Below, in pieces: positions 6,786-59,478 of a stretch of 64,000 bases of DNA. Made by a program: the position numbers and the translations under genes. Positions within the stretch are counted from its first letter, which is position 1; every line of letters begins with the position of its first letter. A model generated the notes under the pieces. The model saw nothing but the letters and a program-made list of their open reading frames with translations, ran no database searches and had not been told where the DNA came from. Origin of the DNA: an uncultured Candidatus Binatia bacterium (GTDB lineage Bacteria; Desulfobacterota; Binatia; Bin18); contig CBDDQA010000003.1 in the NCBI GenBank assembly GCA_965232605.1, positions 337,618-401,617 on the forward strand, written 5' to 3'.

Positions 6786-6980
6786 GCGATGCCTCCTCGT
6801 CAGTGTGTCACCGCCTGTCTGTATCATTCGTTCCGGGCAACCGCAATTTCTCCGCCCTGCCCTTTGGTCGCCGCCTTTGACTCGCCTGGCTTCCCACTTT
6901 AAGTTGAGAGTGAGTCTGCGGGCGGTCAGCCGATATCCGACCAGATGGGACGGCTGCGGCCGGCTCTACGGCATAGGACC

Positions 6981-12155: not shown

Positions 12156-12181
12156 GAGAGTCTCCTCATTGTCCGACCTGC

Positions 12182-13039: not shown

Positions 13040-13092
13040 ACTCCTCCGCTCAAAGTCTGCTCAACGCCCCACGTGTATGCCAACAGCCGCCA

Positions 13093-15480: not shown

Positions 15481-15493
15481 CGACCATGCCTCG

Positions 15494-17194
15494 CTACTCG
15501 TAAAAGACCACGACCACTGAGGTATTATCGCTGCCACCGGCAGTATTGGCCGCAACCGTCAATTCCAGGGCGGCCTCGTGCGGGGTCCGGTGGCGACTCA
15601 CAATGTCGGCAATCGCCGGGTCAAGGACATGGCTGGTCAGCCCATCGCTGCACAAGAGGAGACGGACGCCGCGCTTCAGCCGGCGCGAGAGCGTATCAAC
15701 CTTGACGTTTTCCTTGCTGCCCAAAGACCGGATCAGGACGTTGCGGTGCTCGTGGGTCAACGCCTCTTCTTCGGTCAGTTGACCGATTTCGACCAAACGG
15801 GCGACCAGGGAATGATCGTGCGAGAGCAGGTGCAAGGTCCCGTTTTCCAGCAGATAGACCCGGCTGTCCCCAACCCAGGCCAGCGCCAGTTGTCCGGCCT
15901 GCATCAACGCGGCAACGATCGTGGCCCCCAGGCCAGCCGACTCGGGATGATCTTTTCCGTATTGGACAATCCGGGTATTGGCCGTCTCGACCGCCTCGCG
16001 CAAACAGCGCTCCCAAGCGGCAACATCGACTGCCTCTTCCGCTCCAGCCCAGGCGGCTTCGACATGGCGGGCGACGGTCCGGATGGCAATCTGACTCGCC
16101 ACCTCCCCGGCTTCGGCGCCACCCATCCCGTCTGACACAATATACAGCCCCCGGAAATCACTGCCGGCTATGCTGCCCCGCCCGACCTCTTTGACCAGCA
16201 CGGCATCTTCGTTGTGGTCACGCACCTGTCCGACATCGGTCCGCCAGGCCGAGCGGATGTGCCCGGACTGACTCAGCCCGAGCAGGTCGTGTTTCAGCGC
16301 GTGCAGGTCGGCATAGCGCTCCGCCGGCTCAAGGGCCAAGGTTCTGCTTAAAACACGCTCGAACTCGGGGGTCAGGACTTTCTCCGGATAGAATACGGGT
16401 GGCTCGGGCTGAACCGCCCAGCCCTCAACCGGCAGGCGCCGCCCGACCAGCACGGCATACAAGCATGCCCCAAGCGCAAATACGTCCGCGGCTTCGTTTA
16501 ATACCTGGGCCTTATATGCCTCGGGCGCAGCATAGCCGTCCGTCAATACGGGGTTCTCCTCAATCGAGTCTTTAAGACGAATCGCGTCGAATCGGGTCAG
16601 GTGCAGACGGCCCGTCTTGTCGAGCAGGATATGCTCCGGCGGCAGCTCAACGCACAGGAAGCCGTGCCGGTGCAAAGCGCCCACGGCCTGACAGAGCTGG
16701 ACACCCCAGCCGGCCGCCTCCCGCTCCGCTGTCCGGCCAATGCGCTGACTCAACGGCAGACCGGACTGATGCGGGGTGACGAGGTAGACCCGGCCGTCAC
16801 GTTCACAACGTTCCTGGGGGAGAATCAGGGCCGGATGGTAAATCTCGGCCAACTGTTCGGACAAGCGAAACGCGCCACCCAAATGGGCATCGGCCTGGTC
16901 GCGTGACCGTTCCGCTATGAGATAGGCTTGGCCGTCGTCAGTCTGACGAACCGCCCGGTAACGATTTTCCTGTCCGGTCGAGAGGAGTGCGGTCAGACGA
17001 TAGGTATCGGCCAGAACGGTGCCGACCGGCAGCGGTTCAAGGGCGGGAGATGACTCCCCCTCGCCGTCTTCTTCAAGCGCGACGCCGCAGGCCGTACAAA
17101 ACGTTTCGCCGATAACATTGGCCTGTCCGCACTCACCACAAACGTAACTCTCCTCGCGATCCGTCGGCTCGGTCATCAGCGGCGCGGAACCCAT
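15494..17194 (-). CDS. zinc-ribbon + degenerate kinase-like (pseudokinase) domain + C-terminal PP2C-family Ser/Thr phosphatase
   Basis: N-term CGECGQ..CTACG; kinase-like region lacks GxGxxG, has HRHGFLCVELPPEH (no HRD) and TRFD (no DFG); PP2C motifs LYIVSDGMGGAEAGEVAS...DNTSVVVVFYE. Confidence 0.8.
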   Translation of the reverse strand: MGSAPLMTEPTDREESYVCGECGQANVIGETFCTACGVALEEDGEGESSPALEPLPVGTVLADTYRLTALLSTGQENRYRAVRQTDDGQAYLIAERSRDQADAHLGGAFRLSEQLAEIYHPALILPQERCERDGRVYLVTPHQSGLPLSQRIGRTAEREAAGWGVQLCQAVGALHRHGFLCVELPPEHILLDKTGRLHLTRFDAIRLKDSIEENPVLTDGYAAPEAYKAQVLNEAADVFALGACLYAVLVGRRLPVEGWAVQPEPPVFYPEKVLTPEFERVLSRTLALEPAERYADLHALKHDLLGLSQSGHIRSAWRTDVGQVRDHNEDAVLVKEVGRGSIAGSDFRGLYIVSDGMGGAEAGEVASQIAIRTVARHVEAAWAGAEEAVDVAAWERCLREAVETANTRIVQYGKDHPESAGLGATIVAALMQAGQLALAWVGDSRVYLLENGTLHLLSHDHSLVARLVEIGQLTEEEALTHEHRNVLIRSLGSKENVKVDTLSRRLKRGVRLLLCSDGLTSHVLDPAIADIVSRHRTPHEAALELTVAANTAGGSDNTSVVVVFYE

Positions 17195-17253
17195 ACGTCA
17201 CCAGTCCACTGAAGGTTCTCGGTTTCGCCAGTTCCAGAACGGCCAAGCCAGCC

Positions 17254-17913
17254 TCATTGCGCGCGCGACACCTTGAAAAAGGTTTTGCCGACGATGATCT
17301 CGTCGCCGTCTTTGAGCGGAACGGGCGAGCCGGGCTCAAGGCGTTGTCCCCGATTGATAAACGTCCCGTTCAGGCTCCCGATATCTTCAATCGTCAGCTC
17401 GGCCCCGAATTTTATCAGCGCGTGTTTGCGGGAGATACGTGCTTCCGGGTCGTCGTTTTCCATATCAACTTCAGGAAAAGAACCGGAATCCGGGTCCCAC
17501 CGACCCACCAGATTGTCTCCGGCCTGGAGCTCAAAGACTTTTCCCACAGTGCCCCCCCGGGTGATGGTGAGCGAAGCGCTGCCGACCGCTGCCTGGTCAT
17601 CGCTGAGAGCGGCGACTTCGGGCACGGCTTCTTCTGCCGGAGTCTCCGGAGGCACATCTCCGGCCACCTCCGTACTCTCCTCAGCCGCCTCGACACTCGC
17701 CTCGTCCTCAGCTTCAGCCGTTTCAGCCATAGCTTCTTCTGGCACAGCTTCTTCTGCTGCGGCCTCCGTACTGGCCTCAACTTCTGCGGGAGCTTCCTCT
17801 GTGGTCTGGACTTTACCCAGAACGATCGCTCCGGCTTCAAGTTTCGCTCCGCAGCTATCGCAGTACTCCAGGCCATCCATTTGTTCTTCATTGCATTCCG
17901 CACAGCGAATCAT
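17254..17913 (-). CDS. zinc-ribbon + acidic linker + C-terminal FHA domain protein
   Basis: MIRCAECNEEQ..CDSCG; Glu/Ala-rich linker; FHA NLVGRWDPDSG..ARISRKHALIKF..NGTFINGQ; AAGGAG RBS before ATG at 17913. Confidence 0.8.
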   Translation of the reverse strand: MIRCAECNEEQMDGLEYCDSCGAKLEAGAIVLGKVQTTEEAPAEVEASTEAAAEEAVPEEAMAETAEAEDEASVEAAEESTEVAGDVPPETPAEEAVPEVAALSDDQAAVGSASLTITRGGTVGKVFELQAGDNLVGRWDPDSGSFPEVDMENDDPEARISRKHALIKFGAELTIEDIGSLNGTFINRGQRLEPGSPVPLKDGDEIIVGKTFFKVSRAQ

Positions 17914-17951
17914 TCTCACATCTCCTTCATGGGCTGCATCTGGGATGAAGC

Positions 17952-19241
17952 TTAATCTTGCAGCGCGTCTTTGACGCTCTCAGGGTCGAGTTGCTGCGTC
18001 TTGCGGAGGCTTGCCTGAGCGGTGAGCAACTGAGTCTTGGCTGCCCCGGTCGCAAGACTCTGGGTTTTCTTCAACTCACTCTGGAGCCCCTCAAGCGCTT
18101 GGGTTGCTTTCGCATTTCCCAGTCGCTGCGTACCGGCTATGGCATTCCCCAACAGCCGTGTGGCTTTATCCGTATTGCCGGCAGCCATAGCCGCCTCGGC
18201 CTGCAACTGAATTTTGGCCACACTGACCTGATCGACCAGATTCATCACATAACCGTTGGCCTGGCCAAGGGCCGAGCGCTCAAGCGTGTAATGCACCACC
18301 ACGTCCACGCTTTCGTGCTGGTTTCTGGCCTCGGGCGTATCGTAGTACAGCTCAGCTTGCGCCAGCCGAACCCGGCCGGGTCGGCGGGGCGGTAAGACCA
18401 AGACGGCTAAGGCCGAACTTGGTGTTCCTGCTTCAATATCTCCCAACGGCAGAGAGAGCGTCCGGTTGGCGTCGGGTGTCGTCTCTTTGATCGGGTAAAT
18501 CTGAGGGCTGGCGCGAAAGGCTTCTTTCACCTGCACCCCGGCGCTGAGTTGCATCTCAATCCGCGCGTTGGTCAGGGCGACATTCCGCAGTCCCTGGAGT
18601 TCATTGGAGAAAATATTCGGAATGGAGGCCGGAGCGTCAATAAAATGATAGTTTGCGCCACTCTCCTCGGCCATTTCCATCAGCAGCTTTTCATTGAACT
18701 CGATTCCGACCCCGAGCGTGCTGCACGAAACACGGTCGCGGTGTTGACGGGCAAGATCGAGACATTTGCGCTCCTCGTACGTCTGACCGTCGGTCAGAAG
18801 CAACAGGCGGTTCAGGCGGTTCGGCGAATAATACTTCTCCACCTCGGCCAGCGCGGCTTCCATGCCCAGGGCCATTTGCGTCCCGCCACCAATCTCCAGG
18901 AGATCGAGATCGTCAATGGCCCGCTTCACTCCGGCGGCATCCGCCGTGACGCGGTCTGCGGTTGCCGCCACTTCGGCCCGGTCGGCAAACGCGACCACCG
19001 CGGCCTTGTCATCCGGACCAAGATTATCAATCAGATATTTGATGGCCTCGATGACATAATCAAGCCGCTGTTCGTCGTACATCGAACCGCTGCGGTCAAG
19101 AACAATGCCAAGATTGAGCGGCAGGCGTACCCCCCCACCCTGCGGCTTGGTCTCCATGAGCAGGTACAGGATGAAATTTTCCGCACTGCTCAGAACGGCA
19201 TCACGGCTTGTCAGCGCTTGGAACCCAACAGCACCAGACAC
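17952..19241 (-). CDS. cytoplasmic vWA-domain protein (TerY-like) with C-terminal coiled-coil
   Basis: MIDAS DRSGSM, TDG, no signal peptide; C-terminal 100 aa heptad-like (AKIQLQAEAAMAAG...LKKTQSLATGAAKTQLL); GTG start with AAGGAGG RBS. Confidence 0.8.
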   Translation of the reverse strand: MSGAVGFQALTSRDAVLSSAENFILYLLMETKPQGGGVRLPLNLGIVLDRSGSMYDEQRLDYVIEAIKYLIDNLGPDDKAAVVAFADRAEVAATADRVTADAAGVKRAIDDLDLLEIGGGTQMALGMEAALAEVEKYYSPNRLNRLLLLTDGQTYEERKCLDLARQHRDRVSCSTLGVGIEFNEKLLMEMAEESGANYHFIDAPASIPNIFSNELQGLRNVALTNARIEMQLSAGVQVKEAFRASPQIYPIKETTPDANRTLSLPLGDIEAGTPSSALAVLVLPPRRPGRVRLAQAELYYDTPEARNQHESVDVVVHYTLERSALGQANGYVMNLVDQVSVAKIQLQAEAAMAAGNTDKATRLLGNAIAGTQRLGNAKATQALEGLQSELKKTQSLATGAAKTQLLTAQASLRKTQQLDPESVKDALQD

Positions 19242-21785: not shown

Positions 21786-23027
21786 ATGCTCAACCCTTAT
21801 CGAGTCCTTGACCTGACAACCGAACGCGGATTGCTGTGCGGCCAGATTCTCGCCGACCTGGGCGCTGACGTGATTAAAATCGAACCCCCCGGAGGCTCCT
21901 CGGCCCGCAAGCTGGGACCCTTCTATCAGGACCAGGAGGATGCGGAAAATTCGCTCTACTGGTGGGCCTATAACCGCAATAAACGGGGGGTCACCCTCGA
22001 CATAACGCGCTCCGAAGGCCAGGATATGCTGCGGCGCCTGGCCCAGGGCGCAAAATTCCTGATCGAATCGGACAACCCCGGCACCCTGGCCCAATACGGC
22101 CTGAGCTATGACGACTTGGCGGCAGACAATCCGGGGCTGATTTATGTCTCGATTACGCCGTTTGGACAAGACGGGCCAAAGGCCAGCTATGCGGATAGCG
22201 ACCTGATTATTCTGGCCAGCAGCGGGCCGCTCGTCATTACCGGGGACGAAGACCGTCCGCCCGTCCGCCTGAGCGTTCCCCAGGGCTATCTGCACGCCAG
22301 CGCCGCCGCGGCCCCGGCCGCGCTGATTGCCCTGTACGAATCCCATCAATCGAACCGCGGCCAGCATATCGATATTTCCGCCCAGCAGGCCGCGGCCCAT
22401 GCAACCCAATCGACCATTCTCTCGGCTCCGCTCAACGATGCGGAAACCCGCCGCATGGCCGGCGGGGCAAAAATGGGACCGCTGGAAATCCGCCTGCTCT
22501 GGCCGGCGAAAGACGGCCATGTTTCGATTGCCTATCTGTTTGGCTCGGCCTTTGCCCATTTCACCAAGCGTCTGATGGACTGGATCTATGAGGAAGGGTT
22601 TTGCGATAAAGAAGTCCAACAGATGGACTGGGTTGGGATGGGCGGCGGCCTCTTTGGTGGCGACCCGCAAACGATTGAAGACTATGAACGCCTCAAACTG
22701 ATCGTTGAAGACTTCACCAAAACCAAAACCAAGGCGGAGCTGTTCCAGAACGCCCTGGACCGTGGCCTGCTCGTCGCTCCGGTCACCACGATTGACGAGG
22801 TCGTCGAGAGCAAGCAGTTGGAGTCCCGTCAATACTGGACCACGGTTGACCATGAGGAGGTCGGCAAAGCGTTTGCCTATCCCGGTCCGTTTGCCAAGTT
22901 CAGCGAGCAGCCGATTTCCTATAAGCGTCGTCCGCCGAAGATTGGTGAGCACAATGCCGAGGTCTATGCTGAACTCGACCTTGACGCCCAAGCGTTAGCG
23001 GAATTGCAGGGCAAAGGGATCATCTAA
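21786..23027 (+). CDS. CoA-transferase family III (CaiB/BaiF)
   Basis: MLNPYRVLDLTTERGLLCGQILADLGADVIKIE... typical N-terminus; 413 aa. Confidence 0.85.
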   Translation: MLNPYRVLDLTTERGLLCGQILADLGADVIKIEPPGGSSARKLGPFYQDQEDAENSLYWWAYNRNKRGVTLDITRSEGQDMLRRLAQGAKFLIESDNPGTLAQYGLSYDDLAADNPGLIYVSITPFGQDGPKASYADSDLIILASSGPLVITGDEDRPPVRLSVPQGYLHASAAAAPAALIALYESHQSNRGQHIDISAQQAAAHATQSTILSAPLNDAETRRMAGGAKMGPLEIRLLWPAKDGHVSIAYLFGSAFAHFTKRLMDWIYEEGFCDKEVQQMDWVGMGGGLFGGDPQTIEDYERLKLIVEDFTKTKTKAELFQNALDRGLLVAPVTTIDEVVESKQLESRQYWTTVDHEEVGKAFAYPGPFAKFSEQPISYKRRPPKIGEHNAEVYAELDLDAQALAELQGKGII

Positions 23028-23054
23028 CCAAGACTCAATCAGGAGGGGATCACC

Positions 23055-24296
23055 ATGGCAGAGGGACAACAGACCGGCAGCGAAAGCAATCAAGCCCTGG
23101 CTGGGGTCAAGGTGCTCGATTTCATGTGGGCGATGGCCGGCCCCGGCTCGACCCGTATTCTGGCCGACTACGGAGCGACCGTTGTGCGGATTGAATCCAC
23201 TACCCGCTTTGACGCGGTGCGCATGGTCGGTCCCTTTCAAAACAAGCAGCCCGGCCCGAACAATTCCGGTCTGTACAATAATATGAACACCGGCAAACTG
23301 CCGATGACTCTGAATCTGTCCAAACCGGAGTCGCGTGAGATTATTCTTGATCTGGTGCGCTGGGCCGATGTCGTGACCGAGTCTTTTTCTCCCAAAGCCA
23401 TGCGCGAGTGGGGTTTTGACTACGAGTCGCTCGCCAAAATCAAGCCCGATATCATCATGCTCAGCACCTGCCTGATGGGTCAGACCGGCCCCCACTCGCA
23501 CTTTGCCGGGTTCGGCAATCTGGCGGCTGCCGTCTCGGGCTTCTTCGACCCCACCGGCTGGCCCGACCGCGCACCCGCTGGGCCGTTCGGAGCCTACACC
23601 GACTATATTGCCCCGTGGTATAACGCCGCGGCCGTGCTGGCGGCATTGGAGCATAAGCACCAGACCGGCAAGGGCCAGCATATCGACCTGGCGCAGGCCG
23701 AAGCCTCGCTCCATTTTCTGGCGCCGTTTCTTTTAGACCAAACCGTCAACGGACGAACCCAGACCCGGATGGGCAACCGGGATATGAACTTCGCCCCGCA
23801 CGGGGTGTATGAGGCCGAAGGAGAGGACCGCTGGGTGGCGATCGGCGTGGAAACCGACGACCAGTGGCGCTCGCTGTGCGAGACCATGAACCGCCCGGAC
23901 CTCGGCAGTGACGAGCGCCTGGCCACCGCCAAAGGCCGGTTGGACAATCAGGACGAAATCGACACGGCCGTCAACGCCTGGAGCAGCCAACTCAGCCCGT
24001 ATGAGGCCGAAGAACAGCTTCAGGCCAAAAACGTCCCGGCCAGTGCGGTGGAAACCATCAACGAGCTGTACGAGGACAAGCAGCTTCAGCACCGCGAGCA
24101 CTTCGTCGACCTGGAGCATCCCGACTTCGGCACGACCACGGTCGAGGGCACCCGCTTCAAATTCTCCCGCACCCCGGCCCAGATCAACCCGGCGGCCCCG
24201 ACGCTGGGACGTGAGAACCAGAACGTACTGGAGAACATTCTGGGCTATAACGAAGAGAAGATCACCGAGTTAGTGATTGCCGAGGTGCTGGAGTAG
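23055..24296 (+). CDS. CoA-transferase family III (CaiB/BaiF), tandem paralog
   Basis: GVKVLDFMWAMAGPGSTRILADYGATVVRIE; 413 aa. Confidence 0.85.
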   Translation: MAEGQQTGSESNQALAGVKVLDFMWAMAGPGSTRILADYGATVVRIESTTRFDAVRMVGPFQNKQPGPNNSGLYNNMNTGKLPMTLNLSKPESREIILDLVRWADVVTESFSPKAMREWGFDYESLAKIKPDIIMLSTCLMGQTGPHSHFAGFGNLAAAVSGFFDPTGWPDRAPAGPFGAYTDYIAPWYNAAAVLAALEHKHQTGKGQHIDLAQAEASLHFLAPFLLDQTVNGRTQTRMGNRDMNFAPHGVYEAEGEDRWVAIGVETDDQWRSLCETMNRPDLGSDERLATAKGRLDNQDEIDTAVNAWSSQLSPYEAEEQLQAKNVPASAVETINELYEDKQLQHREHFVDLEHPDFGTTTVEGTRFKFSRTPAQINPAAPTLGRENQNVLENILGYNEEKITELVIAEVLE

Positions 24297-24898: not shown

Positions 24899-26541
24899 GA
24901 CAAGCACCACCGGGCCAGACACAGGGAGTCGGCCTTGTGCCCGACCGCCTGTTCGTACGGCCACACGTAAAACACGATCATGAGTATTGTCACGACCGCG
25001 CCACAGACCATCAAACCCTTCGCGAACCACAAGGTTGTGGCGGTCAGGGAGGGATCGTATTCCGCGGGCGGCGTTTGATGGATTTGCCGGCGATACAGAT
25101 GTTCCTCCTCGGTGACCCGGCCATTGCGCGATACGAGAACAATCGTGATGAGGCTCAAGACGATGCCGATCACGAAGGGGTCGAGATACACCGGCAGGAA
25201 TATCACCTCGAAGACCGACAGGACCTTCGGGATCAGGTTGCCGACAAAGCCGACGACAATCCCCCAAAAAGCGCCGTCTGCCGTGATGCGTGTACTCCAC
25301 ACGCTCATGAAGGCCATCGGTCCCCACGACGATGCAAACAGCGTTGCCGCAAAATAGCTGATCATCATGATCGCGGGCGGCTGAAAATACGCGACGATCA
25401 GGATGACGGTCCCGACCGCCAGCATGGTGGAGCGGCTCAATCGGAGCTTGCGGCGTTCGTCGCCTTCGCCAATCTCGACCAGATCGTTCGTCGCGCTGAA
25501 TCCGATCAAGGACAGAAACGTCGACGCCGAGGACAGAGCCGCAGCCACCACGCCGGTCATGAACAACACGCCCGCATAGGTCGGCATGGTGTTGAAAGCC
25601 GCCCAGATCATGGCCCTTTCGTTGGGCTCGATATCCGGGTTGAGGAGATTGACGGCCGCGGCGGACACCACCAAGGCCCAATACAGCACCACGACCGACG
25701 CGCTCGCCAAGCAGGCCGACCGCATCACGGTGTGCTCATTTTTCGCCATCAGGTAGCGGCTCGATTGCCACGGGCTCACCGCAATCGTGAACGCCCACGC
25801 GATCCCGAGCACGAGACCCCAGCCAACCGAATCGAACGGCGTCTGCCAGCGCGCATCGGCTCCGACGACACCGTGCCAGGAGATGATTGCCGGCTTGGCT
25901 TCGTAGACCGCCAGGGACTCGATGGTGGCGAACCATCCCCCGGTCTCACCCAGGATGTAGTAGAGCGAGAGGAAACCGACGCAGGTGAACAGCAGGTACA
26001 TGACGGTATCCGTCAGCACCACGCCTCTTGAGCCGGAGTAGATCGTGAACGAGGTATAGCCGACCCAGACGATCAGCAACGTCACCTCATAGGGAATATG
26101 CATCACTTCCGATATCGCCAGTGATGCTCCCTGGGTCACCGCCAGCAAATAGGCGGTGACCCCCCCGATCACCGTCACACCGGCGGCAGCCTGAACGCGC
26201 CGACTGTTGAAGCGCTTGCCGAAGAACTCGGCCACGGTTATCGCCTGGCTGCGCCTGACATAGCGGCCGAAGAACGCCGCGCCCAGGACGTAGCCGACGA
26301 TATTGACCCCGACCAGGATCAGCAGGATCGCGCCGTGGCCCTGATAGGTAAACCCGGTTTCACCCAGGAAGGCGGCGGTGCTCAGATAGCTCGCGACCAG
26401 GGTGCCGGCTATCAGCAGGGTCGAGCTGTCACGCCCCGCAACGAAATAATCATCGACATCTTTGACCCGCCGGCCGGCGTAATTGCCGATCAGCAGATAG
26501 ATCACGATGCTCGTGATGATGCCGAAGGCGTAGGGGTTCAT
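24895..26541 (-). CDS. sodium:solute symporter (SSS) family transporter
   Basis: 548 aa, ~13 TM segments, MNPYAFGIITSIVIYLLIGNYAGRRVKDVDDYFVAGR typical SSS N-terminus; ATGA overlap with upstream gene. Confidence 0.85.
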   Translation of the reverse strand: MNPYAFGIITSIVIYLLIGNYAGRRVKDVDDYFVAGRDSSTLLIAGTLVASYLSTAAFLGETGFTYQGHGAILLILVGVNIVGYVLGAAFFGRYVRRSQAITVAEFFGKRFNSRRVQAAAGVTVIGGVTAYLLAVTQGASLAISEVMHIPYEVTLLIVWVGYTSFTIYSGSRGVVLTDTVMYLLFTCVGFLSLYYILGETGGWFATIESLAVYEAKPAIISWHGVVGADARWQTPFDSVGWGLVLGIAWAFTIAVSPWQSSRYLMAKNEHTVMRSACLASASVVVLYWALVVSAAAVNLLNPDIEPNERAMIWAAFNTMPTYAGVLFMTGVVAAALSSASTFLSLIGFSATNDLVEIGEGDERRKLRLSRSTMLAVGTVILIVAYFQPPAIMMISYFAATLFASSWGPMAFMSVWSTRITADGAFWGIVVGFVGNLIPKVLSVFEVIFLPVYLDPFVIGIVLSLITIVLVSRNGRVTEEEHLYRRQIHQTPPAEYDPSLTATTLWFAKGLMVCGAVVTILMIVFYVWPYEQAVGHKADSLCLARWCLS

Positions 26542-28241
26542 GGTACGGCCTTGGCCGTCCAGTCACCGTGCGGGCCATCGTTACTCATGACGTACGCATT
26601 GTTCCGGTTCGGGTCGCCTGCAACGGCGATCAGAAACTTCGAGGCCTCGGTCACGATCGGCACGAGGCGTTGCGGGTCGTTGGACTCGCCGAAGACCGGC
26701 GGGATCAGACCCTCGGTCGCCAGTTCGAACAGGGTGCGGCCCCCCGCATCGATGTTGCTCCACTCGCCGATGAACTGCTCGAACCTGGCCGCCGGCAGCC
26801 GGGCCTGCACGAACAGCGCCCGCTTGACGTCATCCTTGCCCCAGCCGGATCGGGCGAAGGTGCGCGCCAGCATCGGGGAAAGGATCAACAGCGGTCGATA
26901 ATGGCCCTGTCCGAGTCCGTAGATGTGCGCGAGGTCCCAGCCACTGACTCGAACGAGGCCGTCGGCCAGATACGGCACGAGCGCCTCGCCCGTCGATCCG
27001 AAGACGCTGCCGAGGATCAGGCTGCTATTCATGCGGACCATGGTGACCACGTCGTCGTCCCGCCCGAACCCGAACTCCGCACTCAGCGGTTGCCAGCCGA
27101 TGTCGGTCAGCGTCTGCTCATCTTCGGCCAATACCACCCGGGTGCTGTTACCGAACGTGGCCTTGTCGTGTTCGTCGACGGTGAATCCACAGACATTGCG
27201 CAGGTACAGCCGGAGCCATCGGGCGACGCTGGTATTGGCATGGGCGCCCTCCCGAAGGACACCCTGCCGGGCGTTGAAGCCGAGTTCGGCCATCGACGGC
27301 CCATTAACGATGACGAGGGCGTCGGCCCCGGTGGTATTACCCGAGTGCTCGACGCCGTAACCGGGATCGGCGATGATTTCGGCGAGCGCCAAGAGCACGG
27401 GCAGGTGCCGGGGCTGACAGCCGGTCATGACGGCATTGACGGCAACCGACCAGACCGTGATATCGCGGCCCGAGGGTCGGGCGGTGCCGATTACTCTCCA
27501 GGGGTCATCGTTCAGCGCGGCGAGAAACGCCGCGACCCGGTCCTGGGTCGGCGGAACGACCGGCAGTCCATCGCTCCAGCCCTCAACGGTGAAACGTTCG
27601 TTGATCTCGTCAATCGTTCCCGTGGCGACGACGTCCAGTGGCGCGGGCTCGGCGGCAGCGGCCTCACCGACGACCGGCGCGCTGGTGAGGCCGGCTATGA
27701 TCTGGTCGAGCGTCGCGTCGCGCAGGGAACCGATCATCTCGTCGTAGCTCTGCGCGTCCACGTGTCCGCGCAGCACGCCGAGGGGAAGCCCGTCGAATCC
27801 CGCGCCGCGACCAGTGGCCGCCGCCTGGCGTTCGAACCCTTCGCAGACCAGCGACACCGATGGTACCCCGGCGGCTTCCGCGACAACCGACGCCCGCATC
27901 ACGGCGGGCGTACAACTCCCTCAACATCCCACCCCGGAGACGACGGCGTCGATACCGCGGTCGCGCAACCGGTTGGGGAGGGCGGCAATCACCTCGGCTT
28001 CATCACCCCCGTGCGTGTTGCCGAATTCATCGTACCCGACGATTTCGATCCCGGTGAAGCGGTGCTGCAGATCTTTCTCGATGACCGGAAAAAGCTCGTG
28101 ACCGCGAAACAGGAAATCCCACAGAAACCCGACGCGTTTGCCCTCGAGCGTGTCGAGCCGCTCGGCGAGATGCCGTGGCTGTACCGCGAGCGGCGATTTC
28201 GGCCAGACGACTTCGTAGTGAATTGCGCTATGTGAACTCAT
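26538..28241 (-). CDS. UGSC-family selenoprotein domain fused in-frame to a ~450-aa uncharacterised domain (GWSDGLPVVPPT family); in-frame TGA at comp(27921..27923) read as Sec
   Basis: Track ORFs 27921..28241 and 26538..27902 are in the same frame, separated only by TGA; read-through gives ...AVVSGVGC-U-GSCTPAVMRASVV...; SECIS-like hairpin follows. Confidence 0.6.
27890..27911 (-). promoter_or_regulatory. SECIS-like hairpin 9 nt downstream of UGA (ACGCCCGC-CGUGAU-GCGGGCGU)
   Basis: Perfect 8-bp stem, GU-containing 6-nt loop, position typical of bacterial SECIS. Confidence 0.5.
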
Positions 28242-30204: not shown

Positions 30205-31073
30205 GGTGTGTCATCAGTTAAGGAGGATGACCGAGGCGGCGAGATAGATCGCGCCCAGAAAGCTAACGGCGCGTTTGTCATAGCGCGTGGCAAGCGCCCG
30301 ATATTGTTTGAGTTTGGCGAAGAAGTTTTCAATCAAATGACGCGCTTGATAGAGGTGCGTATCATAGGCGCGGGGCTGGGTCCGATTGGCCTTGGGGGGA
30401 ATCACAATCGTCACCCCCGCCTGCTCTAACAGGTCTAGGACGCGCGCTTGAGCCTCATAGGCGCGATCCGCCAGCACGGCCTGGACGTGCGGCACTAAGT
30501 CCGGGAGCAGCGCATCCGCCCCGGCGAGGTCCGAGGCGTGGCCGGGCGTGAGATGGAAGCTGGTCGGATTGCCCAAGGCATCACAGGTCGCATGGAGCTT
30601 GGTACTCAAGCCCCCGCGCGAGCGCCCGAGGCATTCCGTCCTTTGGTCCCCCCTTTTGCCCCGGCCGCATGTTGATGCGCCCGGATGATCGTGGCGTCAA
30701 TCATAGCGTATTCGTTGTCAGCGTCAGCCGCGAGGTGCTCGAACACCCGCGCCCACACCCCACTCCGACTCCAGCGCATATGCCGGGTATGAATCACCCG
30801 AAAATCCCCAAACCGCGCCGGCAGGTCCCGCCAGGGAATGCCCGCCCGATAGCGGTATAAGACCGCTTCCACAAACAACCGGTTATCCTGCGCCGTGCCC
30901 CCCACATGCCCCGCCCGGCCCGGCAGCAACGCCTCAATCCGCTCCCACTGGTCCTCCCGCAGAGCATACCGTCTCGCCATTGTCGCTCCTCTCTCCTCTC
31001 GTGCTGACCAAGGAAGTATACCGCAGCGAGACTGGAAAGCCGACCAGAGATGCGTACTAACTGATGACACGCC
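30205..31073 (-). mobile_element. IS5-family insertion sequence, copy 2 (869 bp, inverted relative to copy 1), perfect 4-bp TSD CTAG (30201-30204 / 31074-31077)
   Basis: Same terminal repeats as copy 1; OrfA/OrfB ~88%/~85% aa identical to copy 1 by visual alignment. Confidence 0.85.
30214..30980 (-). CDS. IS5-family transposase OrfAB (orfA comp 30606..30980, orfB comp 30214..30609)
   Basis: MARRYALREDQWERIEALLPGRAGH... and MSTKLHATCDALGNPTSFHL...KLKQYRALATRYDKRAVSFLGAIYLAASVILLN. Confidence 0.85.
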
Positions 31074-32290: not shown

Positions 32291-32645
32291 TGGTGGAGGC
32301 GGCGGGAATCGAACCCGCGTCCGAAAGTAGTCCACTCAAGGCATCTACAATGCGTAGCTCGTATTTTGATCTCATCCTCGGGCCTCCTACGAGCAGGATG
32401 CCCTCAGACCAGCCAAAGTAGAGTTTCGGGCGCGCACCCTTCGGCACGATGCAAACCCTATCCCGATTTGTGTCGCCTTAGCCGACCCTACGGGCGCGGA
32501 TCGGTAAGACGCAAGCTGCTCTAGGCAGCAAGAGCGTAGTCAAAATCGTCTGCAGTTAAATTGCAGCCTGTCCGTTTTACGGGCGGGACAGAACCCCGGC
32601 ATGCAGCCTTGGCTTTCTAGCCCCCGTCGAAACCAGATCGCCCCC
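32291..32645 (-). ncRNA. ssrA: tmRNA (SsrA), tag peptide reading frame A-DDFDYALAA-stop
   Basis: 5' end GGGGGCGAUCUGGUUUCGACGGGGG, 3' tRNA-like end GGACGCGGGUUCGAUUCCCGCCGCCUCCACCA; internal GCAGACGATTTTGACTACGCTCTTGCTGCCTAG; adjacent smpB. Confidence 0.8.
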
Positions 32646-32696
32646 TTATCGCAGTTATGTCTCTCACACAGGGAAAAGACCGGGAGACATACCCCC

Positions 32697-33167
32697 CTAG
32701 CCTGTTCGTCTGTGCATGGCACGTTGAACATCGCGCTTCATCTCGCGTTCGCGAATGGCAGCACGCTTGTCATACGTCCGTTTACCCTTGGCCAGAGCCA
32801 ACTCAACCTTGACCCGGCCTTCCTTAAAGTACAGCCGTAGAGGAACCAGGGTCAATCCCTGCTCTTGTGTTTTGCCCATCAGGCGCAGGATTTCTCTTTT
32901 GTGCAGCAGGAGCTTGCGCCGGCGGTTGGGATCACCGTTGAAATAATGGGCCGGTTTGTAGTCGCTGATATGCGCGTTCAATAAAAACGCCTCGCCCTTG
33001 TCGATCCGGCCATAGCTGTCCTTGAGGTTGGCCCGACCGTCCCGGAGCGATTTGACCTCTCCGCCGTTCAACACAATCCCGGCCTCGATGGTTTCGTTGA
33101 TGATATAGTCGTGCCGTGCCTTGCGATTGACGCAGATCGCTCTCTGGGCGGACTTCTCTTTGGCCAT
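32697..33167 (-). CDS. smpB: SsrA-binding protein SmpB
   Basis: MAKEKSAQRAICVNRKARHDYIINETIEAGIVLNGGEVKSLRDGRANLKDSY...; ATG at 33167 preferred over GTG 33173. Confidence 0.85.
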   Translation of the reverse strand: MAKEKSAQRAICVNRKARHDYIINETIEAGIVLNGGEVKSLRDGRANLKDSYGRIDKGEAFLLNAHISDYKPAHYFNGDPNRRRKLLLHKREILRLMGKTQEQGLTLVPLRLYFKEGRVKVELALAKGKRTYDKRAAIREREMKRDVQRAMHRRTG

Positions 33168-33182
33168 GTTCACGCTCTGCGA

Positions 33183-39341: not shown

Positions 39342-39536
39342 ATTCTGAAATGAGGCCAGGAGGCGTGGGAGACGGAGGCAACGGACTAGTCATGGGCCAG
39401 AGTTATAGCACAGGGCCGGCCTGTTGCAGAAGACCAACACGCTCTGGCCTTGACGCGCCGTTGGGACATGGCTACAGGTGGCCCACCGCGCCTTGTCCGC
39501 CCCGATCCGGCGCGCATCCCAGAAAGGAGCACAGCT

Positions 39537-40070
39537 ATGGAACGCCTTCACCCCGGAGATCCTTTTCCCGCCATCAGCGGTCCGAGCGTCGGCGGCGGGA
39601 CGGTTAATCTGCCGGCCGACATCTCGACCCCGTACGCTATCGTCCTGACCTATCGGGCTCACTGGTGACCGTTCTGCGATCAGCAGTTGGCTGATTATCA
39701 GGCCCATCTTGAGCAGGCCCAGGCAACCGGGATCTCGGTGTATGCCATCTCAACCGACCCGCTCGACAAGGCCCAGCAGACAGTCGATAAGTCGGGGCTG
39801 ACGTTTCCCGTCATCTACGGCGTGGACGGCCCGGCCACGGCCGCGACCCTGACCTGCTGGTACGAGGAGAAGCGCAATATCATCCAACCGGCGGCGTTTA
39901 TCATCGACCCTGCACGTAATATCCTGAACGTGACCTATACCTCGGGGCCAATCGGGCGCCTCCAGATAAAAGACGCCCTGGGGCTGGTCGGTTTTTACGC
40001 CTCAAAGAAGATTTCGGCCACAACGGTCGATAAAGACAAAGGCTGGACAGCAAATGTGACCGGAGCCTGA
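39537..40070 (+). CDS. thioredoxin-fold redoxin/peroxiredoxin-like selenoprotein, motif W-U-P-F-C; in-frame TGA 39666..39668 read as Sec
   Basis: ORFs 39450..39668 and 39687..40070 share one frame separated only by TGA; AGGAG RBS 8 nt before ATG 39537; joined product ...YAIVLTYRAHW-U-PFCDQQLADYQAHLEQAQATGISVYAISTD... matches redoxin CxxC position. Confidence 0.65.
39678..39696 (+). promoter_or_regulatory. SECIS-like hairpin 9 nt after UGA (GAUCAGC-AGUUG-GCUGAUU)
   Basis: 7-bp stem (one G-U), 5-nt loop with GUU. Confidence 0.45.
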
Positions 40071-40117
40071 CACGATACCGGACCGCTTGCGGCAGTGCGC
40101 GAGCGGTCCACTTACTC

Positions 40118-42275: not shown

Positions 42276-43502
42276 CTAACGGTCCTCTGCGTACAGCACT
42301 CCTTTCGCTTGGAGTGCGGCGATGGTGTCGTTGCTATAGCTGAGCTGCTCTCGCAGCACCTCGGCACTGTGCTGGCCTAAAAGCGGGGCCTGAATGTCCG
42401 GGAGCCGGGGGAATTCAGAATACTTGAGCGGGAAGCCTGGGATGGTGACTTCTCCCAGGATGGGGTCAGGCACCGTCCGAACCATCTCCCGCGCCTTGAA
42501 ATACGGATGGGCTAAAATATCGGTGATGGACATAACGGGAGCGGACGGCACCCGATGCTCTTCAAAAATCTGGAGAACGGCCGCATCGCTCGGCTGCGCC
42601 TGCATCCACGCTTCGATCATCGGAATGAGTGCGCCCTGGTTCTCCCCTCGCGCCGCATTGGTCGCAAAGCGCGTGTCTTCAATCAGCTCCGGCTTGCCCA
42701 TGGCCTGACACATCTTGGTCCACTGTCGGTCCAGGACGAGGACAACGATCCAGCCCTCGGGCCCTTTGAACACCCCGCACGGGCATACCAAAGGGTGATG
42801 TGACCCCATCCGGAGCGGCACAAACGCGCCCTTGCTCATGGTGTGACCCTGCACATTAACCTCGTGCATATGGAACATGGCGTCAATCATGGACAGGTCG
42901 ATATACTGGCCGACACCGGTACGTTCCCGGTGGTATAAGGCATAGCCCAGGGCGGCAAAGGCGTGGACGCCGCTGCTGACATCGGCAATCCCCAGCCCGA
43001 CAAACTGCGGCGGCCCGTCCGGACTGCCGGTCATATGCATGATGCCGGAGAAGGCCTGGGCAATGAAATCGTAGCCGACCTTGTGAGACAGCGGGCTTTT
43101 GCGTCCAAAGGCGGAAATCGAGACCATGATAATCTGGGGATTGATGGTCTTGAGCGAGGCATAGTCAAGATTCCGTTTCTCCATCACGCCCGGTCCGAAA
43201 TTCTCAACCACCACATCTACGGTCGGAATCAGGGCTCGCAGGATTTCAAGGGATTCCGGCTGGTCGAAATCCAGGCAGAGGCTTTTTTTGCCGCGATTCT
43301 GCTGGACGAAATACGCGCTGCGCTCATCCTGAATAAACGGCAGCAAGCGCGACGGGTCGCCCATGGGCGCCTGTTCCACCTTGATGATATTGGCCCCCAT
43401 CTCCGCCATGAGACGGGTCACGGTCGGGCCGGCCAGGTATTGGGTAAAATCCAGGACGGTCACGCCGGAAAGCATATACGCTTGGCCATTGGTCTGCTGC
43501 AT
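42276..43502 (-). CDS. CoA-transferase family III (CaiB/BaiF)
   Basis: GVTVLDFTQYLAGPTVTRLMAEMGANIIKVE. Confidence 0.85.
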   Translation of the reverse strand: MQQTNGQAYMLSGVTVLDFTQYLAGPTVTRLMAEMGANIIKVEQAPMGDPSRLLPFIQDERSAYFVQQNRGKKSLCLDFDQPESLEILRALIPTVDVVVENFGPGVMEKRNLDYASLKTINPQIIMVSISAFGRKSPLSHKVGYDFIAQAFSGIMHMTGSPDGPPQFVGLGIADVSSGVHAFAALGYALYHRERTGVGQYIDLSMIDAMFHMHEVNVQGHTMSKGAFVPLRMGSHHPLVCPCGVFKGPEGWIVVLVLDRQWTKMCQAMGKPELIEDTRFATNAARGENQGALIPMIEAWMQAQPSDAAVLQIFEEHRVPSAPVMSITDILAHPYFKAREMVRTVPDPILGEVTIPGFPLKYSEFPRLPDIQAPLLGQHSAEVLREQLSYSNDTIAALQAKGVLYAEDR

Positions 43503-46383: not shown

Positions 46384-47271
46384 CTATGATCTGATGCTGA
46401 CCTCCAGTTGACGCGAAACGGATTCGGTCGAAACGATGTGCCGCTGGAGTTCCATTTCTTTCTCATCGAAGCCAAAGGCCAGGCCCAGGAGCTGGGGGAG
46501 ATGGATAATCGGCATTCCTATCTGGGTCCCGGCCTGTTTCTCGGCCGTCGGCTGGTTGGCGTCAAGATTCAAATGACACAGCGGACAGGGCGTCACCATG
46601 CAGTCGGCCCCCTTTGTCTTGGCGTCACCGGTATGATCGCTGACCATTCGCATGGAATTCTCTTCGTTGACGGTCAGAATCGGAAATCCACAGCATTTGG
46701 ACTTCCCGCTCGAATCCACGGACTCGGCGCCAAGAATGTCGAGCAGGTCCTCTAAATAGGTTTTCCGCCCCGACAGGCCCTTGGGCGCAATGATGGAGGT
46801 TGGACGCCGGATGTAGCAGCCATAGAAGGGCGCGACCTTGAGCCCGGTCAGTTTCCGCTTGATATACGGTTTCAGGTTCTCCACTCCATAGTCTTCCATC
46901 AGCACCCATAAGAGATGCTTGACTTCGACCGTGCCTTTATATTCCAGTCCTTCCTCTGCCAGGTATTCGGCATTGATCTGCTGGCGATACTCGGGCTCGT
47001 TTTTGAAGCGGTGGTTGGCTTGGGTGAAGACTCCCTGACAGGTACTGCAAATCGTCATGAGAGAGGACAGTCCCATTGCCTCCACCTTGGCCAGGGTCCG
47101 CGCGTTGATAGGGTCGGACAGGTCACGGCTCAACACCCCGGCGCCGGTACAGCCGACATCGGTCACTTCTTCGATTTCGATCCCGAGTGTTTCCGCCACC
47201 TTGACCGAAGCGGGATAGAGTTCAGGACAGGCTCCACGGGACACACAGCCTGGATAGAATGCATACTTCAT
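46384..47271 (-). CDS. HdrB-like CCG-domain subunit (type E succinate dehydrogenase/fumarate reductase SdhE / TfrB-like)
   Basis: Two CCG cysteine-rich repeats (CTGAG...CSTCQG; CCGFP...CPLCHLN). Confidence 0.75.
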   Translation of the reverse strand: MKYAFYPGCVSRGACPELYPASVKVAETLGIEIEEVTDVGCTGAGVLSRDLSDPINARTLAKVEAMGLSSLMTICSTCQGVFTQANHRFKNEPEYRQQINAEYLAEEGLEYKGTVEVKHLLWVLMEDYGVENLKPYIKRKLTGLKVAPFYGCYIRRPTSIIAPKGLSGRKTYLEDLLDILGAESVDSSGKSKCCGFPILTVNEENSMRMVSDHTGDAKTKGADCMVTPCPLCHLNLDANQPTAEKQAGTQIGMPIIHLPQLLGLAFGFDEKEMELQRHIVSTESVSRQLEVSIRS

Positions 47272-48236
47272 ACTTCGCTCCTCTGGGCTTTGTCTATGAT
47301 GCGTCGAATCGCCTGGGCACCCGGTCGTTTGGGATGGAAATACGGCATCGGGGCCTTGCCCTTTGGAATGGCCCGGATCACCGTGGGCAGGAGTTTCGCC
47401 AAGCCGGCAACATTGGTCAGGCCCTCGCTCTCGATCGCCAGCCGGCCTTCGTCCAGCCAGCCGCTGCGCTTGACCGAATTCAGGAAGCTGTCGTAATGCC
47501 GCTGCACCTTGGGGTTCCTCGTACCGGAGCGAATGCCCTGTCGAATCGCCTCGTCACGGACCTCGAAGAGGCGGTCGGTCGGTTCCAGGCCCAGGGGGCA
47601 ATGCCCATTGGCCTCAAAACAGTGCGTACAGTCCCAGACACCTCCAGGCTCGCTGACCAGCGTGAGGCGCTCGTTGTGCTGTCCATCGCGCGGGTCGAAA
47701 ACGGCTCGATACGCCTTGGTGAGGGCGGCCGGACCGACAAAGTCCTTGTCAATTTTAATCACTGCACAGCCCTCGTCGCACAGGCCACACATGATACAGC
47801 TCATCGCTTTGCGGACTTCGGCCAGTTGCTCCTCGGCGACCACGTATTCGCCCTCGGGCTCCGGTCTGCGGGGTGTAATCCACGGCTGGACCGACTTGAT
47901 TTTCTTCCAGAGGAAACTCTCAAGGTCGTACACTAGGTCTTTCAGCACCGGGATATTGCGAATCGGTTCAACGGTCACCACACCGTTCTTGACCGTTTTG
48001 GCGATTTTCAGGGTACAGCCGAGCCGGCCCTTTTTGTTTATGCGGAGCGCGCAGTCACCGCACGACCCCCGCTCGCACGAGGCCCGAAACGCCAGGCTGG
48101 GGTCCTGCTCATCCCGAATCTGCCTGAGTCCATCCATCACGGTGGCCGAATCCGGCAGGTCTACTTGGTAGGTCGCAAAATCCGGTTTGCTCCCGTTTTC
48201 AGGGTCGAAACGGTAGACCTTAAATGTTGTTTCCAT
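47268..48236 (-). CDS. sdhB: succinate dehydrogenase/fumarate reductase iron-sulfur subunit
   Basis: CERGSCGDCALRINK.., CIMCGLCDEGC, CTHCFEANGHCP cluster motifs. Confidence 0.85.
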   Translation of the reverse strand: METTFKVYRFDPENGSKPDFATYQVDLPDSATVMDGLRQIRDEQDPSLAFRASCERGSCGDCALRINKKGRLGCTLKIAKTVKNGVVTVEPIRNIPVLKDLVYDLESFLWKKIKSVQPWITPRRPEPEGEYVVAEEQLAEVRKAMSCIMCGLCDEGCAVIKIDKDFVGPAALTKAYRAVFDPRDGQHNERLTLVSEPGGVWDCTHCFEANGHCPLGLEPTDRLFEVRDEAIRQGIRSGTRNPKVQRHYDSFLNSVKRSGWLDEGRLAIESEGLTNVAGLAKLLPTVIRAIPKGKAPMPYFHPKRPGAQAIRRIIDKAQRSEV

Positions 48237-58168: not shown

Positions 58169-58768
58169 TTACGCTGACACCCGCTCGATCTTTTTCTCCA
58201 TCGGCTTGAGAAACCGCCCGCGATACGCGTCGGCCAACTGTTCTGCCGGCTGGGTCAGAATAGCCAGAATTTCATCCACCACGGCCGCGGCCTTGGCCTG
58301 CACCACCTGCGGCGTATTGCCGGCCAGGGGATGGGGAATCACGGCAATGGGCACCCCGCTCATACCCAGGGTGCGGGACTCGGCCCGACCGAGCGGAGCA
58401 AACTCGTCGCTGCAAATAATGGCGGTCGGAACGCCTTGCTTTTCCAGTTCAATGGTGTCGTGGAGACCCCACGACGTACACGAGCCTCAATCGCCTATGG
58501 CCACGACAACCGCATCACAGGTTGACAGGCGGGCCAGAACTTCCTTGGGTGCGCCGAGCGAGGCGTTTTTCTCACCCTTGATGACGGCGAAGTCCCCGCA
58601 ACGTTCGTGCAGCAGCGTTTCCACCTGTTCGAGCAGCAGGCCGGCGTTGGCCTTCCGGTTATTCAGAAAACCAATGGTTTTCCCGCGCAGGCTCCCCTCT
58701 CGTCGGGCAAGCGGCAGGTCACCGGCTTGCGCCTCTCCAATTGGGCTGAGGACTTCAATCTGTCCCAT
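58169..58768 (-). CDS. UGSC-family selenoprotein (~200 aa), in-frame TGA comp(58487..58489) read as Sec
   Basis: ORFs 58487..58774 and 58169..58363 share one frame; read-through ...AVVVAIGD-U-GSCTSWGLHDTIELEKQGVPTAIICSDEF...; GGGAGG RBS before ATG 58768; homologous to 27921..28241 ORF. Confidence 0.65.
58457..58475 (-). promoter_or_regulatory. SECIS-like hairpin 12 nt after UGA (GUCGUGG-GGUCU-CCACGAC)
   Basis: 7-bp perfect stem; GGUC loop resembles the E. coli fdhF SECIS apical loop. Confidence 0.5.
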
Positions 58769-58872
58769 ACGCACCTCCCTTGCTCTTCGCTATATAGTCC
58801 AACCCTCTTGCCCGTGCAATGGAACGCCGGGTACAGTTTCGACCATCAGGCCATCACATCAGGAATAGCGCC

Positions 58873-59478
58873 ATGGCGAACGTCAAAATCCCGGTTTACT
58901 ACGATTATGCCTCTTCCCTCAGCTATATCGCCAAGCGCGTGCTGGAACAGCTTGACGGTCAACTCGCAATCGAACTGTTGTGGAAAGGCCTCAACATTGC
59001 TCGCCGTCACCAGGGCTGGAAGAACGGCGAGATGATCGGAGACGAGGCCAAAGGCAAAATTGTTCGCATCTCGCGCGAGACCGGCGTCCCGCTGCGCATC
59101 CCGACAAAATGGCTGGACTCGGCCCATGCCTTGGAAGCGGCCGAATTCGCCAAAGGCCACAATCTGTTTGCCGCCTATCACGAGGCGATTTTTGTGGCCG
59201 CGTTTGAGGCAGAGCAGGATATTGGCGAGCGGTCTGTTTTGCTTGGCGTGGCCGAACAGGTGGGCTTACCCGTGGCGGAATTGGAGCAGTCGCTACAATC
59301 CGGCGAACTGACCCAGCGGGTCCGGGCAACCGAACAGGAAGCCGCCAGGTTTGGCATAGTCGGCTATCCCACCTTTCTGCTCGGCGAATTTCCGTTGATT
59401 GGCATTCAGCCGGCGGAAACCATGCGCCTGCTGATTCAGCGCTATGTTGATAAAGCGCGCGAGCAGGTGGGGCATTAG
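58873..59478 (+). CDS. DsbA-like thioredoxin-fold protein lacking the CxxC motif (HCCA-isomerase-like)
   Basis: [20 protein letters not shown]... (SSLS in place of CPxC) ...[10 protein letters not shown]; divergent from UGSC gene. Confidence 0.65.

Follow-up and report, generated by a model that had tools for sequence, protein, structure and literature searches.

A UGA-split redoxin gene from Candidatus Binatia as a probable UxxC selenoprotein of the peroxiredoxin-like family

In a 64-kb stretch of DNA from an uncultured Candidatus Binatia bacterium (60% G+C; hereafter the window, to which all coordinates refer), two open reading frames (ORFs) separated by a TGA codon very probably form one monocistronic gene for a cytoplasmic redox protein of 177 amino acids (aa) with a peroxiredoxin (Prx) fold, in which the UGA at 39666-39668 would be decoded as selenocysteine (Sec) by means of an intragenic Sec insertion sequence (SECIS). 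Direct support was obtained for the gene structure, the conservation of the UGA codon, the correspondence of Sec with Cys in homologues, constraint at the RNA level and covariation in the hairpin that follows the UGA, and the fold. By its match to PF00578, its motif and the published description, the redoxin is a member of the described "Prx-like, UxxC, PF00578" selenoprotein family. It is a real but ordinary selenoprotein gene from an under-studied lineage and is systematically mis-annotated in the protein collections searched. Selenoprotein biology is left unchanged, as family, motif and recoding mechanism had already been described; the chief value of the case lies in the correction of annotation, since UGA-split Sec redoxins sit in these collections as stubs devoid of an active site.

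Gene structure and conservation of the UGA codon

Direct reading of the sequence placed ORFs 39450..39668 and 39687..40070 in one frame with TGA 39666-39668 as the sole stop between them, just as an original prediction made from the sequence of the window had described. Translation of the joined frame gave a product of 177 aa and ∼19 kDa including Sec at position 44 (U44), with the motif Y39-R-A-H-W-U44-P-F-C47 followed by DQQLAD. The gene comprises the following features.

39525..39529, plus strand: Shine-Dalgarno sequence AGGAG, 7 nt upstream of ATG 39537
39537..40070, plus strand: complete coding sequence (CDS) of the Prx-like selenoprotein, 177 aa, with its own stop TGA at 40068-40070
39666..39668, plus strand: in-frame TGA, putative U44; TGA is kept in relatives and Cys occupies the position in distant full-length homologues
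39675..39677, plus strand: TGC, Cys47, second residue of U-x-x-C; aligns with the peroxidatic Cys and is nearly invariant in the family alignment
39687..39689, plus strand: TTG, codon of Leu51 and positions 3-5 of the SECIS loop; miscalled start of a 127-aa ORF

The start at ATG 39537 with AGGAG as its ribosome-binding site, likewise part of that prediction, also held. The spacing between AAGGAG or AGGAG and the start codon was preserved in 28 of the 29 related genome loci; in L029 the motif was shifted by 1 nt, and the sequences diverged farther upstream. Because the DNA upstream of 39537 was not conserved among the related loci compared, where conservation collapsed and relatives carried stops, we assign the start to ATG 39537 and not to TTG 39450. 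Reading the sequence ahead of TTG 39687 revealed no Shine-Dalgarno sequence, and a start at this codon is a gene-caller artefact. No sigma-70-like promoter was found upstream of the gene in a consensus scan of the region. Since the window contains 114 same-frame ORF pairs split by TGA alone, such a pair does not by itself exceed chance expectation; the redoxin case rises above it because of the comparative evidence, namely the retention of TGA and purifying selection on both halves.

Related loci were collected by two scans. A scan of genomes, with one genome per species, yielded 29 loci at 66-99% identity, mostly from Candidatus Binatia metagenome-assembled genomes (MAGs). Complete Binatia chromosomes with the orthologue are OZ243979.1, OZ242288.1 and OZ220487.1. 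The scan of metagenomes employed two peptide patterns flanking the Sec codon, with the codon itself excluded, and an alignment of four sequences in which the Sec residue was given as X. All 29 genome loci had TGA at codon 44 and conserved protein on both sides of it, as well as 79 of the 80 metagenome loci (36-97% identity; TAA in one, Cys in none). Across related loci, down to ∼36% identity, the Sec codon was TGA in 109 cases, TAA in 1 and Cys in 0. Moreover, the DNA upstream of two distant short database homologues (47% and 45% identity) reads W-TGA-P-Y-C, and the N-terminal half is present there. Compared with the window gene, relatives differed mainly at third codon positions, ahead of the UGA (codons 1-43) as well as behind it (codons 45-175); in L023, for example, 14 synonymous and 7 nonsynonymous changes preceded the UGA and 62 and 16, respectively, followed it. 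As judged from these sequences, purifying selection acts on both halves of the gene, before and after the TGA.

Two loci deviated. L103 (206-220, metagenome contig Ga0315297_10108725), the locus with TAA at the Sec codon, has an otherwise intact frame and an intact SECIS; its TAA could reflect an error in sequencing or an inactivation that happened very recently. L032 (6001-6527, Binatia MAG CBDESS010000002.1) keeps TGA and SECIS, and its frame breaks down past residue ∼95; the locus is either a pseudogene or affected by an indel of the assembly.

If the TGA were a true stop, the locus would hold a redoxin pseudogene, or a 43-aa peptide followed by a 127-aa protein starting at TTG 39687. Every public gene call splits the gene in this way, with database entries of 107-128 aa, an upstream ORF of 43-44 aa is called in some relatives, and the TAA of L103 and the frameshift of L032 would fit as well. 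We nevertheless regard a true stop as barely credible, given that TGA was kept in 109 loci spanning 36-99% identity between two flanks under purifying selection. In addition, a protein of 127 aa would be missing the entire active site together with the first three beta strands, no Shine-Dalgarno sequence precedes its TTG, and the synonymous freeze and covariation of the hairpin described below would be left unexplained.

Cysteine homologues and the hairpin downstream of the UGA

The 133 residues after Sec were searched against 1.84 billion representative sequences, giving 319 matches at E ≤ 0.001. A profile search was carried out in a collection of 5.8 billion proteins, for which figures rest on the best 120 matches. 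Full-length homologues (∼30, 153-177 aa) mostly read Y-R-G-x-W-C-P-[FY]-C, with Cys at the Sec column. Sec had been proposed to take the place of the first Cys of a WCxxC-type site, and an alignment to Cys-containing homologues had been suggested as a check; in the full-length forms, the motif stands at the same place, and Sec and Cys correspond. The best 120 profile matches comprised ∼39 full-length Cys forms and ∼80 truncated forms of 107-128 aa. The full-length Cys forms carry the names "peroxiredoxin family protein" or "redoxin domain-containing protein," and none of the profile matches listed was annotated as a selenoprotein.

Sec-containing members were present in the searched collections only as truncated entries, named "peroxiredoxin" or "redoxin domain." The 24 close database homologues were 102-128 aa long and started just past the UGA at the Leu or Met of the SECIS loop, with a single exception (P0022; 158 aa, 41% identity), which reads A-W-C-P-S-C. 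Similarly, ∼50 matches of 103-114 aa in the search of 1.84 billion representatives started at query residue 7-8 with "[LM]ADFQ," a signature of truncation. The TTG (or TTA) within the invariant loop AGUUR is the start codon chosen by gene callers at homologous loci, and the truncated entries lack the active site because gene callers start at this codon of the SECIS loop. Prx-like UxxC genes are routinely split at the UGA by gene callers.

The hairpin GAUCAGC-AGUUG-GCUGAUU, which the original prediction had beginning 9 nt past the UGA, was read at 39678-39696. It forms the upper part of the following element.

39673..39702, plus strand: SECIS element, with a conserved core at 39679-39695
39673-39676/39699-39702, plus strand: lower stem, 4 bp, UCUG/CAGG, from predicted folding
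39678-39684/39690-39696, plus strand: upper stem, (G)AUCAGC/GCUGAU(U), 6-7 bp, from folding and comparative constraint
39685-39689, plus strand: apical loop, AGUUG, 5 nt, in which AGUU is invariant

Published rules for bacterial SECIS (bSECIS) elements call for an apical loop of 3-9 nt, an upper stem of 4-16 bp, a G at loop position 1 or 2 that is usually followed by G or U, a distance of 16-37 nt between UGA and loop, and a minimum free energy of ≤ −7.5 kcal/mol (PMC13188914). The redoxin hairpin lies within these limits: its loop of 5 nt has G at position 2 followed by U, its stem is 6-7 bp long, the loop is located exactly 16 nt from the UGA, and the minimum free energy is −11.0 kcal/mol.

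Evidence for constraint at the RNA level came from two comparisons. Among 28 distinct close CDS, codons were considered eligible if they were degenerate and their amino acid was invariant (n = 75); only 4 of them, codons 48, 49, 50 and 52, were represented by a single codon, and these make up the stem. For covariation, 70 distinct sequences were aligned, including relatives at 36-50% identity. Pair 17-27 was A-U in 40 sequences, G-C in 29 and G-U in 1, and was never unpaired; it couples a second-position change between Gln and Arg codons to a synonymous change in an Ala codon. Pair 15-29 was U-A in 58 and G-C in 6 sequences, and pair 14-30 was G-C in 28, A-U in 18 and G-U in 8, and no variation occurred in the three apical pairs or at loop positions 1-4 (AGUU). 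The observed covariation score was reached by none of 500 shuffles, and slid registers scored lower. The proposal that this hairpin is a SECIS was therefore substantiated by four bSECIS constraints, by the frozen stem codons and by compensatory changes in the 70 sequences. This set of 70 distinct sequences, in which the AGUU loop never varies and compensatory changes occur in the stem, could be used to train SECIS models.

The UGA might also be read through, or stand for a standard amino acid such as Trp, Gly or Cys in a reassigned code, with no involvement of Sec. Trp (TGG) occurs at the Sec column in two homologues, and Sec insertion itself is inferred here and not observed. However, TGA is the ordinary stop for 21 of 54 window genes, the redoxin gene among them, which argues against a reassigned code; homologues have a catalytic Cys at the same position; the UGA is followed by a conserved hairpin that conforms to the bSECIS model; and two other window genes, each with a SECIS-like hairpin, have TGA where proteins of the UGSC family are known to carry Sec. 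We therefore consider decoding as a standard amino acid very improbable. The two homologues in question, P0038 (WWPSC) and P0054 (WWFYC), are distant and full-length, with Trp at the Sec/Cys column; TGG is one base away from TGA, and the Trp could be a real substitution or a miscalled base.

Fold, active site and proposed chemistry

The protein matched Pfam AhpC-TSA (PF00578) over residues 6-129 with 75.5 bits against a cut-off of 26 (E = 4.6e-21) and Pfam Redoxin with E = 2.6e-09. Searched against the PDB, the single sequence matched AhpC (1e-06), and the family profile matched BCP (2cx3, 5.7e-16), chains of Prx6 type and AhpC (∼1e-13), and ResA (5.7e-13). For the Cys homologue P0022, AlphaFold2 modelling with 31 family sequences (pLDDT 97, pTM 0.92) placed C44-P-S-C47 at the N-terminus of helix 45-56. 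Foldseek searches with this model ranked Bcp4 (3hjp; TM score of 0.85, root mean square deviation [rmsd] of 2.0 Å), AhpC2 (5ovq) and Prx6 at the top and ResA-type oxidoreductases lower (TM 0.67-0.76). The earlier classification as a Prx/redoxin protein with a thioredoxin fold was hence upheld. NCBIfam models for peroxiredoxins scored far below their cut-offs (30 versus 272 and 25.8 versus 140), as did those for ResA (20 versus 170) and StoA. Inspection of MERLHPGDPFPAISGPSVGGGTVNLPADIS revealed no N-terminal hydrophobic segment and neither signal nor anchor, and because such a segment is absent the protein is expected to be cytoplasmic.

In all Prx alignments, C47 paired with the peroxidatic Cys, U44 with the Thr/Ser of T/S-x-x-C, R40 with the Pro of the motif, and P118 (in Q-P-A-A-F-I-I-D) with the catalytic Arg. 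The canonical motif P-x-x-x-T/S-x-x-C accordingly reads R40-A-H-W-U44-P-F-C47, with only the Cys kept. No family member had Arg at the catalytic Arg column (R-x-x-F-I-I-D), which holds Pro118 in the window protein and Q/H-A/S in relatives, and throughout the family, three of the four canonical catalytic residues of Prx have been lost. Arg40 and Arg141, which lie near the motif or after it, are conserved. On the evidence of sequence and model, the protein is of the peroxiredoxin fold, but is not a canonical peroxiredoxin. The alignments also refine the original prediction, in that Sec replaces the Thr of Prx, three residues before the peroxidatic Cys, and not that Cys itself.

A Prx-like selenoprotein family has been known since 2004. 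Under "Prx-like 1, pfam00578, UxxC," the Global Ocean Sampling survey counted 225 selenoproteins and 2,740 Cys homologues (PMC2398784), and the family was reported in several Deltaproteobacteria (PMC1794560). It is defined by a thioredoxin-like U-x-x-C motif versus the T-x-x-C/U of true Prx (PMC1088965), and a 2026 review describes it as "predicted with high confidence," with functions largely uncharacterised (PMC13188914). The redoxin shares with this family PF00578, U-x-x-C, the existence of Cys homologues, a SECIS directly after the UGA and an uncharacterised function. It may belong to the subfamily of the Geobacter and marine members. Its clade is made up of sequences from Candidatus Binatia and further lineages of soil and groundwater, and a C-terminal tail (...GWTANV) is conserved among those of Binatia type. 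Candidatus Binatia thereby joins the lineages evidently using selenocysteine; we found no paper linking Binatota with selenocysteine.

Comparison with characterised proteins showed resemblance in several directions. With BCP/PrxQ and Prx6/AhpC (2cx3, 3hjp, 5ovq), the Cys-homologue model shares the fold (TM 0.85, rmsd 2.0-2.4 Å), and the redoxin shares C47 at the position of the peroxidatic Cys and a second conserved Arg (G-R141). It differs from them in that P-x-x-x-T-x-x-C reads R-x-x-W-U-x-x-C, in the change of the catalytic Arg to Pro118, and in its NCBIfam scores below cut-off. ResA, TlpA and StoA likewise combine a thioredoxin-like fold and a Prx-like insertion with a CxxC-type pair where the first helix has its N-terminus, and they are the probable model for how the redoxin works. 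Unlike these membrane-anchored, extracytoplasmic proteins, the redoxin has no signal or anchor, and the TM score is only 0.67-0.76. Sec-containing peroxiredoxins (TxxU) are of the same Pfam family and are also bacterial selenoproteins with an intragenic SECIS, but there Sec takes the position of the peroxidatic Cys (PMC1088965), whereas the redoxin keeps this Cys and has its Sec three residues before it. SelL-related redox proteins (NF040769) are similar in their Prx-like fold and CxxC/UxxU-type motif; membership in this family was rejected, as the match covered only 50 residues and scored 20.5 bits, with the cut-off at 120.

We infer Sec insertion at the UGA, the roles of U44 and C47, the reductant and the substrate. 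By analogy with other bacteria, the ribosome would pause at UGA 39666, and SelB carrying Sec-tRNA(Sec) would bind the AGUUG hairpin 16 nt downstream and insert Sec. U44 and C47 would then be placed at the N-terminal end of the first long helix, as is the CxxC in proteins with a thioredoxin fold. The nucleophile would be Sec44, whose exposed selenolate may attack an oxidised substrate, i.e., a disulfide, a sulfenic acid or a peroxide, Cys47 would resolve the intermediate with formation of an internal Se-S bond, and a thioredoxin-type reductant would regenerate the enzyme. In natural selenoproteins, Sec is found at the attacking position in UxxC (Sec-thioredoxin, glutaredoxin, DsbA-like proteins), in TxxU of Sec-Prx, and in UxxT of glutathione peroxidase (GPx) (PMC1088965).

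With regard to the reaction catalysed, the position of Sec and the loss of Prx residues lead us to lean, by analogy, towards a thioredoxin-like thiol-disulfide oxidoreductase. With the same gene and the same Sec decoding, the enzyme could instead be a GPx-style peroxidase on a Prx scaffold, in which a hydroperoxide would oxidise Sec44 to a selenenic acid and Cys47 would serve as the resolving residue. A fold nearest to BCP, Prx6 and AhpC and less close to ResA speaks for a peroxidase, as do the alignment of C47 with the peroxidatic Cys, a cytoplasmic location together with conserved Arg40 and Arg141, and the UxxT motif of GPx, in which Sec likewise comes first in a motif at a helix N-terminus (PMC1088965). 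Yet the family has lost three of the four Prx catalytic residues (Pro to R40, Thr to U44, and Arg to P118 or Q/H-A/S), and in Sec-containing true Prx it is the peroxidatic Cys that Sec replaces (TxxU), and not the Thr (PMC1088965), so that we rate a peroxidase as possible but rather unlikely. A still bolder interpretation would make the clade a distinct, Sec-obligate branch of Prx-like proteins, either a GPx-style selenoperoxidase or a dedicated partner reductase, and Binatia an unrecognised lineage rich in selenoproteins. It draws on the presence of Sec in all 109 intact loci, the uniform AGUUR loop, the loss of three Prx residues and the GWTANV tail and, for Binatia, on a minimum of 3 selenoprotein genes within 64 kb, and appears doubtful to us.

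Several observations weigh against the interpretation as a SECIS-dependent redox selenoprotein. The chemistry is drawn by analogy, in a family whose functions are uncharacterised, and the structural model is that of a 41%-identical Cys homologue and not of the window protein. Searches of the 64-kb window with ARAGORN and, for 40 of its proteins, with Pfam detected neither selA, selB, selD nor tRNA-Sec. As to the hairpin, its covariation stems solely from relatives at 36-50% identity, the shuffle statistic is inflated by their common descent, and within the closest Binatia clade, where the stem is invariant, no covariation was seen. Furthermore, pair 14-30 is broken in 16 of the 70 sequences and pair 15-29 in 6, the stability of the hairpin is unremarkable compared to shuffled sequences (z of −0.7 to −1.0), and Rfam at gathering thresholds gave no SECIS match, with only tRNA-Leu and tmRNA detected in the window.

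Gene neighbourhood and other genes of the window

The redoxin gene is alone on its strand, with an MtnA-like and a hypothetical gene on one side and Meth_synt_2-like and SGL genes on the other. We rejected this neighbourhood as a clue to function: the order MtnA, hypothetical, redoxin, Meth_synt_2-like, SGL is lineage synteny within Binatia-like genomes and is lost in L029, whose neighbours are an unidentified 221-aa ORF and two unannotated downstream ORFs (269 and 396 aa), and it is therefore uninformative. Six close Binatia relatives (L004, L005, L007, L011, L013 and L017) have ∼1.4 kb (∼6530-7950) inserted between the redoxin and the Meth_synt_2-like gene; this insertion is absent from the window and from the other relatives. 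One further element lies downstream of the redoxin gene.

40080..40109, plus strand: G+C-rich hairpin, possible terminator, with a 12-bp stem and a weak T-run

This hairpin may terminate both convergent transcripts, redoxin and Meth_synt_2-like; in a consensus scan, 0.7 such sites were expected by chance in the region, which makes the evidence weak.

The redoxin had been counted as the third selenoprotein of the window, and this count was corroborated by two genes of the UGSC family with in-frame TGA and SECIS-like hairpins; the organism may, as the original prediction also proposed, have a sizeable selenoproteome. When further TGA-split genes were sought by context and by a scan of G+C content at codon positions, only these two were credible.

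58169-58768, minus strand: UGSC-family selenoprotein gene, 198 aa, IGD-U-GSC, TGA at 58487-58489; NCBIfam UGSC_fam 142.6 bits versus a cut-off of 125
26538-28241, minus strand: UGSC-like selenoprotein gene, 567 aa, GVGC-U-GSC, TGA at 27921-27923; 43.5 bits, below the UGSC_fam cut-off

The UGA at 58487-58489 is followed after 11 nt by the hairpin GUCGUGG-GGUCU-CCACGAC, which fits the bSECIS rules, as does the strong hairpin after the UGA at 27921-27923. In the 567-aa protein, an N-terminal UGSC-like domain is fused to a C-terminal region of ∼390 residues; a "UGSC/Unknown_1 fusion" was mentioned in the Global Ocean Sampling paper (PMC2398784). A DsbA-like gene (58819-59478, plus strand) adjoins the 198-aa UGSC gene in divergent orientation.

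Elsewhere in the window, a signalling cluster at 10602-19241 encodes two FHA proteins (one with VWA), two proteins with Ser/Thr kinase domains (one fused to PP2C) and a VWA protein, and is followed by genes for a cytochrome c' and a dihaem cytochrome c. A tmRNA gene (tag ADDFDYALAA) adjoins smpB (32291-33173, minus strand), and a 131-aa fragment of a DDE transposase (30214-30609, minus strand) lies ∼1.7 kb away, with no ORF between them that passed the gene-map filter. The window also contains three paralogous family III CoA-transferase genes (21786-24296, plus strand; 42276-43502, minus strand), an acyl-CoA dehydrogenase gene at 1148-2311, and a CCG-domain/2Fe-2S pair at 46384-48236 that resembles subunits of succinate dehydrogenase/fumarate reductase or Hdr-like proteins.

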